Of a DNA stretch of 64,000 bases, positions 10,496 to 20,217 are shown piece by piece. The position numbers were made by a program, and so were the translations under genes. The DNA lies in assembly GCF_024700885.2 (NCBI RefSeq), contig NZ_CP117016.1. The stretch is one strand, 5' to 3'. Position 1 is the stretch's first letter; the number at the start of each line of letters is the position of its first letter. This stretch comes from Escherichia coli. GTDB taxonomy: Bacteria; Pseudomonadota; Gammaproteobacteria; Enterobacterales; Enterobacteriaceae. The notes beneath the pieces were generated by a model that saw only the letters and a program-made list of their open reading frames with translations, was not told where the DNA came from and did not search any database.

Positions 10496-11305
10496 GTGCA
10501 GATGCTCGACCGGCTGGAAAGTGAAATCCTGGCTGACCGGGTGAGTGAGGAAAGCCGACGCTGGCTGGCATCGTGCGGCCTGACGGTGGCGCAGATGCAA
10601 AACCAGATGGACCCGGTGTACACGCCGGCGCGAAAAATCCACCTGTACCACTGCGACCATCGCGGCCTGCCGCTGGTGCTTATCAGCACGGAAGGGGCAA
10701 CAGAATGGTGCGCAGAATACGATGAGTGGGGCAACCTGCTGAATGAAGAGAACCCGCACCAGCTGCAGGGGCGGTATATCACTCAGGATCCGATTGGACT
10801 GAAGGGGGGATGGAATTTTTATCAGTATCCGTTGAATCCGATAACTGATATTGACCCGTTGGGATTAGCGACCTGTTTATACAGCATAACTTTAGGTATG
10901 CTTTCATGCGTTTCAGATACGCCAAGTGATGATAATTCTTATGGTGTGCTTACTATTTCAGTCGCCTCTGGTAATAATGGTAATAATATGCAATGTAAAA
11001 ATAATCCTGGTTGTACACACTTACAAAATAGAGGCCCAATACCTCCAGGGGTATGGAGCTGGAATGTTAATGGTCCTGGAGCAACTAATAGAAAACCTAA
11101 TGGTATACGTTTAGTACCGTCAGCAAATACAGAAACGTATAATCGTGATGGATTTTTAACACATAGTTGTTTAAACGCTTTTGGTCCATCTTTAGGACCT
11201 CGATTCTGTTCCGAGGGTTGTATAACTGGTTCATCTAATGACATGCAAAAATTAAATGAGCTAATATTTTCAGAGCCAGATAGCACATTAACAGTGACGG
11301 ACTAG
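10496..11305 (+). CDS. yibJ: orphan Rhs C-terminal fragment (3' core plus alternative toxin tip) with L,D-transpeptidase-like motif
   Basis: nt ~10472-10840 are near-identical to the rhsA 3' core (5616-6070) including [18 protein letters not shown]; the tip then diverges; tip contains H-S-x14-S-E-G-C-I-T (His codon 11162-11164, Cys codon 11219-11221); symbol is positional only. Confidence 0.7.
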
Positions 11306-11309
11306 AAAT

Positions 11310-11705
11310 ATGGCAAGGTTATTAACAATTGTGCTTTTTTTCTCTATTTCTGCGAATGCAGTTACTGTAAACCAATTTCAGAGAGAGTTGGATTTGGCAG
11401 ACAAGGCAATATTATGGGCACTAATATCAGCCAGTACCCAAGAGGGACGAAAAGCGTGTTCACTTAGCTATTTTTCATGTAAAGCCGCAGAGGCTGAACT
11501 CGGACTGGCATATATGGCTGCTAATGATAACAAGGCATTTCTCACATCCTTATCTAGAATAATGATGTACAAAATAGATGCTGGACTTTCCGAATCCTAT
11601 ACATGCTATTTATTAAGCAAGGGAAAGATCATAAGACCATATCTGAAGAATCTAAATCCACACCAACTTGTCGCTGATTGCATTGAAACTGTAAATAAAA
11701 GATAA
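11310..11705 (+). CDS. putative immunity protein for the orphan Rhs tip, secreted
   Basis: starts 4 nt after the yibJ stop; N-terminus MARLLTIVLFFSISANA is signal-peptide-like; AT-rich. Confidence 0.55.
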   Translation: MARLLTIVLFFSISANAVTVNQFQRELDLADKAILWALISASTQEGRKACSLSYFSCKAAEAELGLAYMAANDNKAFLTSLSRIMMYKIDAGLSESYTCYLLSKGKIIRPYLKNLNPHQLVADCIETVNKR

Positions 11706-12283
11706 AAATAAAAAAATCATTGATATAGATTCAGTTAATATTTGCAATGATAATAAAAATATAAATTGGAGAGTTAATAGTACTATTGTAGCCATTGATG
11801 ATTCTATAAAATGCATCGATGAATAATAACTTAATTATATTTAAAAATATATTAATGACTCACTCTCCAGGAGTTTTTTAACTTAGTGTTATAATGAATA
11901 CGATAATTAAAAGTGAAGAGAAAAATAGTTGTATACATATATTACATGAACCTACATTGTGATCTATAAATTAAATATTTTTAAATGTGACTGTCATCCT
12001 TCAGATAATAAAGCCATCATCGCAATAGATGGAAAAGCACTCCTGCTCTTTTTTGATTAGAGCCGTGGCAGAGGAACAACTCATATCATCATTGCGATCT
12101 CGACAATGTATGGTCTGATCCTTCGGCAGATCAAGACGGATAAAAAATCCAATGAGTTCACACTCATCCCGAACTTCTTAACATAATGGATATTAACGAA
12201 AAATCATCGCAGCCAATGAAGTAATATGCAAAAATAATTAGTCCTTACAGGGAGCAAAGTTCCATAATCTCCCCCTTCCCTAC

Positions 12284-17478: not shown

Positions 17479-18065
17479 TGGTGGACCAGGCGCAGGATAC
17501 CCTGCGCCCGAATAACAGATTGTCAGATATGCAGGCAACAATGGAACAAACCCAGGCCTTTGAAAACCGTGTGCTTGAGCGTCTGAATGCTGGCAAAACC
17601 GTGCGAAGCTTTCTGATCACCGCCGTCGAGCTTTTGACCGAGGCGGTAAATCTTCTGGTGCTTCAGGTATTCCGCAAAGACGATTACGCGGTGAAGTATG
17701 CTGTAGAACCGTTACTCGACGGCGACGGTCCGCTGGGCGATCTTTCTGTGCGTTTAAAACTCATTTACGGGTTGGGCGTCATTAACCGCCAGGAATACGA
17801 AGATGCGGAACTGCTGATGGCATTGCGTGAAGAGCTAAATCACGACGGCAACGAGTACGCGTTTACCGACGACGAAATCCTTGGACCCTTTGGTGAACTG
17901 CATTGCGTGGCGGCGTTACCACCGCCGCCACAGTTTGAACCTGCAGACTCCAGTTTGTATGCAATGCAAATTCAGCGTTACCAACAGGCTGTGCGATCAA
18001 CAATGGTCCTTTCACTGACAGAGCTGATTTCCAAAATCAGCTTAAAAAAAGCCTTCCAAAAGTAA
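17478..18065 (+). CDS. mtlR: mannitol operon repressor
   Basis: 195-aa ORF; ATG overlaps the mtlD stop (TAATG); operon position. Confidence 0.93.
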   Translation: MVDQAQDTLRPNNRLSDMQATMEQTQAFENRVLERLNAGKTVRSFLITAVELLTEAVNLLVLQVFRKDDYAVKYAVEPLLDGDGPLGDLSVRLKLIYGLGVINRQEYEDAELLMALREELNHDGNEYAFTDDEILGPFGELHCVAALPPPPQFEPADSSLYAMQIQRYQQAVRSTMVLSLTELISKISLKKAFQK

Positions 18066-18080
18066 GCAACGTCTGCTTAC
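18062..18080. terminator. perfect 7-bp inverted repeat spanning the convergent mtlR and yibT stop codons
   Basis: gtaagca-acgtc-tgcttac; on the minus strand the hairpin is followed by UUUUGG, so it likely terminates yibT; no U-run on the plus side. Confidence 0.5.
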
Positions 18081-18286
18081 TGCCCCTCTACCTGCTTCGG
18101 CCGATAAAGCCGACGATAATACTCCAGACGTTGTAGATATAACGGCACGCTTTCATCAGGTATTCCGGACGGAATCGCGTTACGGGGAGGTAGTTTTTTC
18201 AGATACTCCCGGAACGCCTGGCTCGATGCCATGAAATCTACGGCTTTATCGATAAGAAGCGGAACGTTTTCACCTAATTTGCCCAT
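18077..18286 (-). CDS. yibT: small protein YibT
   Basis: 69-aa [32 protein letters not shown]; position after mtlR. Confidence 0.75.
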
Positions 18287-18569
18287 GATGATATCTCCGT
18301 ATTACCCCGCGCCGGGAATGCGCGGCCGCCAATTTTAGTTTAGATCCCGGTATAAATGACATTAAGGAAAACGTGCTCAATCCTCAATAATCATCCGTTT
18401 CTATTAACTATCTTTTTTCTTTAAATTTCTTAATTAATCAATAAATTGCGTAGTTTTTAAGCATGTTAATGTTTACGTTATAGAACTATTGCAATGTCAT
18501 CAGTTGTGAACAAAGCACCTGGTCGCGCATACTAGGGGCTATAAATTTATCTTTATCAGAAGCCATCAC

Positions 18570-18932
18570 ATGAAAGAAGTCGAAAAAAACGAAATCAAAC
18601 GTCTCAGCGATCGTCTGGACGCCATCCGCCACCAGCAGGCCGATCTGTCGCTGGTTGAAGCCGCAGACAAATATGCTGAACTGGAAAAAGAGAAAGCCAC
18701 TCTGGAAGCAGAAATTGCTCGCCTGCGCGAAGTTCACAGCCAGAAACTCAGTAAGGAAGCACAGAAGCTGATGAAGATGCCGTTCCAGCGCGCGATTACT
18801 AAAAAAGAGCAAGCTGATATGGGCAAACTGAAGAAGAGCGTTCGCGGACTGGTCGTTGTGCACCCAATGACCGCGCTGGGCCGCGAAATGGGCCTACAAG
18901 AGATGACAGGGTTCTCTAAGACTGCGTTTTAA
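18570..18932 (+). CDS. yibL: ribosome-associated protein YibL
   Basis: 120-aa [29 protein letters not shown]; position. Confidence 0.8.
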
Positions 18933-19490
18933 GTTCCTTTCTCGTCGCTGTAATTACAGCCACTCACGATTTACTCGCTCCTGCTGGCACATGCAGGGGC
19001 CTGTTTTAGCGATCGAATATTTATAACGTTCTTAACATTATATATTCAACTCCACCTACACTTCTGAGCGCTCGGAGCAGGCTAAATTCTGAAAATCCGG
19101 TACAAATTAAAGAATGATGTATCAATATTAACAATGAATTGCCGCATATCAATGCTTGAAACATAATTAATTATTTAAATTTTTCTATCAGCATCGCAAA
19201 CTTCGCAATAAAACATCACTCAACTGAATATTTACCTTTCCCTGCCCTGGGCCTTTATCCGGTGAAACATTTGACATTGATTGACACCGATCATTAAAAT
19301 CCGCGCGATTAATATTATTGGCTACAAACCGAAATTGTTTGACACTTAATAACATATTCGCACAACCAATTAATACAAAAATTCTCTAACAAATTTATTT
19401 GTCGGATATGCTCCACTCTAATCATTCATAAAAAAAATGATTGTGCCGTAATTATCAACTGTATCGGGATTATGAAAAGGAATTCATCCT

Positions 19491-20174
19491 ATGAACCTAA
19501 AGAAAACACTGTTAAGCGTGTTAATAATAGTGCCTCTCTGCTTATTGGCAGGGTGTGACTATATTGAAAAAGCGAGTAAGGTCGACGACCTCGTTACACA
19601 GCAAGAGTTGCAAAAAAGCAAAATTGAGGCGCTTGAGAAACAACAGGAACTCGATAAGCGAAAGATAGAACATTTTGAAAAACAACAAACTACTATCATA
19701 AATAGTACCAAGACGCTCGCTGGCGTGGTGAAAGCGGTTAAAGACAAACAGGACGAATTTGTCTTTACAGAATTTAACCCGGCACAAACACAATACTTCA
19801 TTCTAAATAACGGTTCTGTCGGTTTGGCAGGTCGGGTGCTGGCTATTGATGCGGTTGAAAACGGCAGCGTTATTCGTATTTCACTAGTCAATCTATTAAG
19901 CGTTCCCGTATCAAATATTGGCTTTCATGCGACATGGGGCAATGAAAGACCCACCGATGCCAAAGCTCTGGCGAAGTGGCAACAATTACTTTTCAACACC
20001 ACCATGAATTCCACTCTGCAATTAATGCCTGGTCAATGGCAAGACATTAATCTGACATTAAAAGGCGTTTCGCCTAATAACCTGAAGTATCTGAAGTTGT
20101 CCATCAATATGGCAAATCTCCAGTTCGACACTGTTCAATCTGCTGAAACTCGGCAGCGAAAAAACAAAAAATAA
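19491..20174 (+). CDS. coiled-coil lipoprotein, SadB-like candidate autotransporter-adhesin helper
   Basis: 227-aa ORF; signal peptide with lipobox LLAGC; heptad-rich segment (QQELQKSKIEALEKQQELDKRKIEHFEKQQ); immediately upstream of the adhesin gene and co-oriented. Confidence 0.55.
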   Translation: MNLKKTLLSVLIIVPLCLLAGCDYIEKASKVDDLVTQQELQKSKIEALEKQQELDKRKIEHFEKQQTTIINSTKTLAGVVKAVKDKQDEFVFTEFNPAQTQYFILNNGSVGLAGRVLAIDAVENGSVIRISLVNLLSVPVSNIGFHATWGNERPTDAKALAKWQQLLFNTTMNSTLQLMPGQWQDINLTLKGVSPNNLKYLKLSINMANLQFDTVQSAETRQRKNKK

Positions 20175-20217
20175 ATGCAGCTTCTGCGCTTATATCAAGG
20201 AATAGAGAGCATCAATA

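Follow-up and report, generated by a model that had tools for sequence, protein, structure and literature searches.

An AT-rich region upstream of the sadB-upaG adhesin operon of Escherichia coli with a probable H-NS-silenced promoter and a conserved distal element

The intergenic region at 18933-19490 likely contains a single near-consensus sigma-70 promoter (P1) that drives the sadB-upaG operon and is silenced by H-NS in culture. The first gene of this operon encodes a lipoprotein that helps in export, and the second a trimeric autotransporter adhesin. The region is already known: it is the published H-NS-repressed promoter region of the upaG/ehaG locus, rediscovered here. Apart from a modest map of the conserved promoter, the sole new detail is a distal conserved element 5' of P1; no description of the core promoter or of the distal element of upaG/ehaG was found in the literature searched.

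Identity and history of the locus

The gap of 558 bp separates yibL, whose stop codon ends at 18932, from a SadB-type lipoprotein gene with its ATG at 19491 (Table 1). All positions refer to the window, which is the whole 64-kb stretch of DNA that was analysed. E. coli strain 1190 (canine, Scotland) matches the gap at 100%, and its RefSeq gene order is mtlA-mtlD-mtlR, yibT (on the opposite strand), yibL, a DUF3251 lipoprotein, a 1909-aa YadA-like protein, and lldP. The lipoprotein, named SadB/YajI family lipoprotein in RefSeq, matches Salmonella SadB (PDB 4C47) over residues 23-227 with an E value of 2.6e-69. The large protein, encoded after a spacing of 43 nt, matches trimeric-autotransporter families, and the Pfam domains ESPR, YadA_head, YadA_stalk, and YadA_anchor match its orthologues. 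The CFT073 counterparts of the gene pair are C_RS20890 (old tag c4423, DUF3251) and upaG. According to an earlier description, the sadBA genes form an operon that is flanked by the mtl and lld operons and that K-12 lost by deletion (Grin 2014, PMC3953254). Here a SadB-family lipoprotein gene lies directly 5' of a YadA-anchor trimeric autotransporter gene, between mtl and lld, and the locus is the sadBA/c4423-upaG/ehaG operon. The preliminary description of the window had placed an AT-rich control region in front of a lipoprotein-adhesin gene pair, and this is borne out by the matched identities of both genes and by the position of the gap directly 5' of the operon.

Table 1. Features of the yibL-sadB intergenic region and its flanking genes (window positions)
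Feature	Position	Strand	Remarks
yibL	18570-18932	+	ORF; YibL family ribosome-associated protein in RefSeq (strain 1190); left edge of the gap
yibL terminator-like hairpin, GCTCCTGC-loop-GCAGGGGC, then CTGTTTTAG	18977-19008	+	terminator scan; the hairpin itself at 18977-19000
Distal element, TAAATT-CTGAAAAT	19083-19096	+	core TCYGAA (19088-19093) invariant; -10-like hexamer before it
Conserved block GAAAA	19091-19095	+	13-sequence alignment; distal element
Conserved block TTTGACA	19270-19276	+	13-sequence alignment; -35
P1 -35, TTGACA	19271-19276	+	TTTGAC invariant in the 11-sequence alignment; TTGAC(A/T/C) in 17/17 orthologues
Second TTGACA	19281-19286	+	within the P1 spacer; TTGATA, TTAATA, TTGCCA and others in other alleles
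Conserved block ATTA, start of ATTAAAAT	19293-19296	+	13-sequence alignment; -10
P1 -10, TAAAAT	19295-19300	+	18-nt spacer; TAnnAT with a 17-18 nt spacer in 17/17 orthologues
GC-rich discriminator CCGCGCG and predicted start at ~G19307/A19308	19301-19308	+	start at the usual 6-8 nt from the -10
Best match to the H-NS high-affinity motif, GCGATTAATA	19305-19314	+	score 10.4 vs 11.4 for the proV sites; on the predicted start
Third TTGACA	19339-19344	+	within the predicted 5' UTR; not conserved
Shine-Dalgarno site AAGGA	19477-19481	+	conserved block of the 13-sequence alignment; 9 nt 5' of the ATG
sadB-type inner-membrane lipoprotein gene	19491-20174	+	DUF3251; signal peptide, lipobox LLAGC
Trimeric autotransporter adhesin gene	20218-25947	+	1909 aa; positional orthologue of UpaG/EhaG/SadA

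Within the adhesin gene, 6.1 tandem copies of a 234-bp (78-aa) unit with 96% identity occupy 21835-23250, and an additional 300-bp repeat lies at 23548-24095. The adhesin is 1447 aa long in R10, 1624 aa in strain 536, 1778 aa in CFT073, and 1909 aa here, a range that is probably explained by differences in repeat copy number. An overlapping gene of 552 nt, oloz5029, has been claimed to lie antisense and wholly inside ehaG in E. coli EDL933, where it would have a sigma-70 promoter and a terminator of its own (PMC9927249). Variation was also observed in the lipoprotein gene. Codon 3 of sadB is TAG, not TTG, in E. coli O55:H7 DEC5E (L008:1373-1381, compared with L007:1458-1466), so RefSeq starts this gene downstream at ATT; the disrupted start may impair the display of EhaG in this strain. 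For Salmonella SadB, lengths of both 227 aa and 243 aa are on record (L027:1801-2484 and L026:1801-2532, respectively). The 243-aa form has the same start codon and a 3' extension that overlaps the start of sadA by 4 nt, which suggests a stop-codon loss or frameshift in some serovars.

The position of the locus from yibL to lldP is the same in E. coli, E. albertii, E. fergusonii, E. marmotae, E. ruysiae, Pseudocitrobacter, and Salmonella. The adhesin gene has 52% GC; AT-richness is confined to sadB (41%) and the gap. The locus is ancient and syntenic in at least three genera; K-12 lost it, and the others did not gain it. The silencing proposed in the preliminary description had been termed xenogeneic, which is doubtful because the locus keeps the same mtl-lld position in Escherichia, Salmonella, and Pseudocitrobacter; taken together with the GC content of the adhesin gene, this gives no support to a foreign origin of the region. 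In place of 18933-25968, K-12 carries 96 bp (L004:5029-5124) that include a REP-like GCCGCATCCGGCAAG. The K-12 deletion begins at the yibL stop codon and ends 276 bp short of lldP, and because K-12 lacks the whole interval, the upaG terminator (~25970-26005) serves downstream of yibL in that strain.

Composition and conservation of the intergenic region

The region had been described as about 560 bp of very AT-rich, non-coding DNA. Its GC content is 35.7% overall and is not uniform, with 50% over 18933-19020 and 33% over 19021-19490, compared with 49% for the 64-kb window. The very AT-rich character therefore holds for 19021-19490 but not for the first 88 bp, which are most simply read as the yibL 3' end and its terminator. 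RNA folding of 18925-19030 gave -28.4 kcal/mol (z = -2.57). Since ~7% of the 470-bp stretches in the 64 kb are equally AT-rich as 19021-19490, the composition of the gap is marked and not extreme. The yibT-yibL gap (18287-18569) has a GC content of 36.7% (30% over 18400-18599), which is close to that of the sadB upstream gap, so low GC alone does not single out the latter. Elsewhere, 10933-11826 is among the most AT-rich stretches of the window (minimum of 26% GC near 11521) and contains a tlde1-domain gene and a frameshifted Imm57-family immunity gene, which by product names alone look like a type VI secretion effector/immunity pair. The non-coding assignment of the gap stands: the only open reading frames encode 20 to 55 aa in DNA that is not conserved between alleles, and no Rfam family reached its threshold. 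An Rfam 15 search of 17500-21000 at permissive thresholds returned only a chance match to U4, whose 18.3 bits fall below the gathering score of 46 (E = 0.44).

Seventeen orthologous yibL-sadB gaps were collected across Escherichia, Pseudocitrobacter, and Salmonella. The set includes six E. coli alleles, Escherichia spp. E1V33 and E4742, E. albertii, E. fergusonii, E. marmotae, E. ruysiae, three Pseudocitrobacter species, and, reached via the PDB sequence of SadB, one divergent Salmonella (L018) and two classic S. enterica. Alignments used an 11-sequence set, and block conservation was scored on 13 non-redundant sequences. The 17 gaps measure 382 to 558 bp with 30 to 36% GC and, apart from the near-identical strain 536, are 50 to 73% identical to 18933-19490. 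Mean column identity of the 13-sequence alignment is 56%, and exactly four blocks are at least 84% conserved among these orthologues; they fall in the distal element, the -35, the -10, and the Shine-Dalgarno site (Table 1). Among complete E. coli genomes, sadB-like DNA is present in 4,149 of 5,426, in identity classes of at least 95%, 80 to 90%, and 60 to 80%. This intergenic allele is found with at least 90% identity in 1,221 E. coli genomes and with 60 to 80% identity in 659, and it is unrecognisable by BLAST in EhaG-type genomes.

The three TTGACA hexamers that had drawn attention to the region were all recovered on the + strand, at 19271-19276, 19281-19286, and 19339-19344. Three copies in 558 bp exceed chance (mean of 0.20 in dinucleotide shuffles; P for three or more, 0.0005), and the hexamer is under-represented over the 64-kb window (22 found versus 37 expected). 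Six of these 22 occurrences are copies inside the adhesin-gene repeats. The multiplicity is not functional evidence, because only the 19271 copy is conserved and paired with a -10. The third copy belongs to a 17-nt imperfect direct repeat of 19270-19286 (repeat D1). A role of the second and third copies in promoters or in a direct repeat (10-bp spacing) for a response regulator was rejected, as these copies are not conserved beyond UpaG-type alleles. The multiplicity is thus confined to UpaG-type alleles and is not a functional array.

Core promoter P1 and silencing by H-NS

P1 matches the sigma-70 consensus at 11 of 12 positions and is the best consensus match of the area in a promoter scan. 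Its near-consensus hexamers are set apart by a spacer within the 16-18 nt range, and they are more conserved than their flanks. The -10 variants among the orthologues are TAAAAT, TAGAAT, TAGCAT, TAACAT, and TATCAT; as all of them are TAnnAT, the retained positions are those that matter most for sigma-70. A GC-rich discriminator follows the -10 in most orthologues. The usual spacing from a -10 places the most likely transcription start near 19307, which would give a 5' UTR of ~184 nt; the distance from the -10 to the ATG ranges from 163 to 232 nt among orthologues. The predicted leader has no unusual RNA structure (z = -0.25 versus shuffles). The literature searched by locus tag yielded no usable transcription start site or ChIP data for the locus.

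Two further details of this segment were noted. A second conserved -10-like hexamer, TAATAT, lies at 19310-19315, 3 to 8 nt past the predicted start, and its TAATA hardly varies within the 11-sequence alignment; a usable -35 is lacking, and the hexamer overlaps the best H-NS-motif match. This hexamer could act as a sigma-70-dependent pause element or belong to the H-NS site, and together with the distal element it shows that some of the constraint in the region lies beyond the model of P1 and H-NS. An FNR-like TTGAC-ACCG-ATCAT in the P1 spacer was considered because STM3690 is listed as Fnr-regulated, and it was rejected, being not conserved and absent in Salmonella.

EhaG and UpaG levels reportedly rise in hns mutants, and direct binding by H-NS has reportedly been seen in a gel shift. 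The upaG/ehaG promoter region of pathogenic E. coli (Totsika 2012, AEM 78:2179; Valle 2008) is the same locus, with H-NS as a negative regulator: UpaG is placed among the autotransporters of uropathogenic E. coli (UPEC) repressed by H-NS (PMC5012682, citing Totsika 2012). Over-production of TosR in CFT073 raises c4423 by a log2 fold change of 5.1 (~30-fold), and the silent adhesin genes auf, yqi, yfc, and F9 rise together with it (PMC5956150). TosR is a PapB-family AT-DNA binder and a proposed antagonist of H-NS and Lrp (PMC5956150). These CFT073 results transfer to this gap because the CFT073 gap is 94.6% identical to 18933-19490 and has the identical core promoter. Loss of fur in Salmonella raises hns 3.1-fold and lowers STM3690 (sadB) 4.2-fold (PMC3212961), and SadA is undetectable in cultured Salmonella (Grin 2014, PMC3953254).

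The sequence of the gap was compared with an H-NS matrix built from 11 footprinted sites (Lang 2007, Table 1; high-affinity motif tCGATAAATT). The region has 8 matches scoring at least 7, compared with 3.2 in mononucleotide shuffles, of which 1.4% reach this number, and its motif density is the highest of any 500-bp bin in the 64-kb window. This clustering is weak evidence, because the motif is low in information and AT-rich DNA matches it easily. With regard to GC content, 19021-19490 falls in the lowest ~7% of 470-bp stretches, as befits an H-NS-silenced region. P1 looks strong by sequence, yet the operon is silent in culture; the motif on the predicted start would fit repression through occlusion at that point together with spreading. 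H-NS would nucleate on AT-rich DNA, with 19305-19314 at the start point as the best candidate site, and would then spread or bridge over the flanking AT-rich tracts and block RNA polymerase, presumably by occlusion; AT-DNA-binding antagonists such as the PapB-family TosR would relieve the block. H-NS silencing, which the preliminary description had proposed from base composition, thus agrees with the published repression of UpaG (PMC5012682), the induction of c4423 by TosR (PMC5956150), and the motif cluster.

The upaG locus of CFT073 shares with this one the flanks (yibL, the DUF3251 gene, the trimeric autotransporter gene, and lldP), the -35, the spacer pattern, and the -10, while the adhesin of strain 1190 is longer (1909 aa) with its 6.1 copies of the 234-bp repeat. 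The upaC, upaH, F9 fimbriae, tos/TosR, and pap/PapB systems likewise have an AT-rich upstream region, are silent in laboratory culture, and are de-repressed by loss of H-NS or by over-production of an AT-DNA-binding antagonist. Unlike these systems, which are mostly strain-specific islands, the sadB-upaG locus is ancient and syntenic with deeply diverged alleles, and no regulator gene is linked to it.

Distal conserved element and alternative readings

The distal element is present in 16 of the 17 orthologous gaps, 157 to 183 bp 5' of the -35 and between flanks that are ~55% identical. Only P. cyperus lacks it; the gap of this species is shorter by 160 bp and keeps P1. The element was described by the degenerate pattern GGCTAWAWTCYGAA, and AWTCYGAAAAW occurs 2 times in the 64-kb window versus 0.62 expected. 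Comparison by eye with sigma-E, sigma-54, sigma-28, sigma-32, CRP, FNR, IHF, Fis, Lrp, RcsAB, ArgR, MetR, Cra, marbox, and ops gave no convincing match. A sigma-E promoter was rejected despite the likeness of TCTGA to a sigma-E -10, as there is no GGAACTT -35. The pattern of conservation makes the element a candidate for an undescribed cis-signal of sadBA/upaG/ehaG that Escherichia, Salmonella, and Pseudocitrobacter have in common, serving either as the site of an anti-silencer regulator or as a -10-only sigma-S-like promoter; we consider this nearly evenly balanced, leaning slightly to the negative.

The orthologous operon of Salmonella (sadBA; Grin 2014, JBC; PDB 4C47) offers a distant comparison. 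It also lies between mtl and lld, the two genes are separated by 43 to 44 nt in both loci, and its upstream gap is also long (487 bp) with 32 to 34% GC and a promoter of TTGACC-18-TATCAT, but this gap is only ~54% identical to the one described here. Its distal element is altered (ATTCCGAATTTTT) and stands 157 to 158 bp from the -35, compared with 183 bp here, and its leader of ~225 nt is longer than the ~184 nt predicted here.

It is possible, if doubtful, that a dedicated regulator or anti-silencer binds the distal element and influences P1 over ~180 bp, for example by disrupting H-NS bridges or by looping, with H-NS as the default repressor. An island of 8 to 10 bp is invariant in 16 of 17 gaps with its spacing of 157 to 183 bp kept while the DNA between has diverged, the TCnGA core is a short palindrome, and E. 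albertii and Salmonella L018 have a second copy. However, the distances to the -35 (157/158, 171/172, 179, and 181 to 183) are not in consistent helical phase, and a near-constant distance could simply mean few insertions or deletions.

A second promoter, P2, at 19083-19096 that drives or contributes to expression is unlikely. TAAATT would serve as its -10 and transcription would start within CTGAAAA, giving a leader of ~400 nt that runs through P1. The element is among only four conserved islands, and the hexamer before CYGAA is TATAAT in Escherichia sp. E4742, CATAAT in E. fergusonii and Salmonella L018, TATATT in S. enterica, TAAAAT in R10 and E1V33, and TAAATT in this allele; GGC or AGC often precedes it, with G-14/C-13 as in sigma-S-type promoters. 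Against this, no -35 is conserved, the consensus promoter scan did not call P2, and P. cyperus lacks the element while P1 remains. Three of the 13 alleles (E. albertii, P. corydidari, and E. ruysiae) lack the -11 A whereas TCYGAA is invariant, and a core better kept than the -11 A is the reverse of the normal pattern in a -10.

That an unannotated gene for a small RNA or a small protein lies within the gap is very improbable. Its unusual length of 558 bp, roughly kept across genera (382 to 558 bp), could be read in this way, but the leader fold is unremarkable against shuffles, the 20- to 55-aa reading frames lie in DNA of ~55% column identity, and no block is conserved besides the promoter, the Shine-Dalgarno site, and the distal element. 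A phase switch, whether an invertible promoter like fimS or a switch of the Dam/OxyR (agn43) or Dam/Lrp (pap) type, is scarcely credible and is largely refuted: phase variation is known for some E. coli adhesins and the gap has two GATC sites, one of them inside the P1 spacer (19289-19292), but that spacer site is lost in R10, E1V33, and the EhaG-type alleles, the inverted repeats are only short, imperfect, and AT-rich, and no inverted form exists, because all 1,872 of the 1,872 full-length matches in complete E. coli genomes are colinear and in a single piece.

Transcription from P1 under silencing by H-NS is the preferred account of the region. Uropathogenic and enterohaemorrhagic E. coli and Salmonella have UpaG, EhaG, and SadA as adhesins, which have been considered for use as vaccine antigens and as scaffolds for surface display. 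According to the Salmonella literature, it is unknown under which conditions sadBA is natively expressed (Grin 2014, PMC3953254). The placement of the core promoter and the distal element provide concrete targets for reporter and pull-down work, and the distal element, if it is a true signal, could point to the natural inducing condition of the adhesin.
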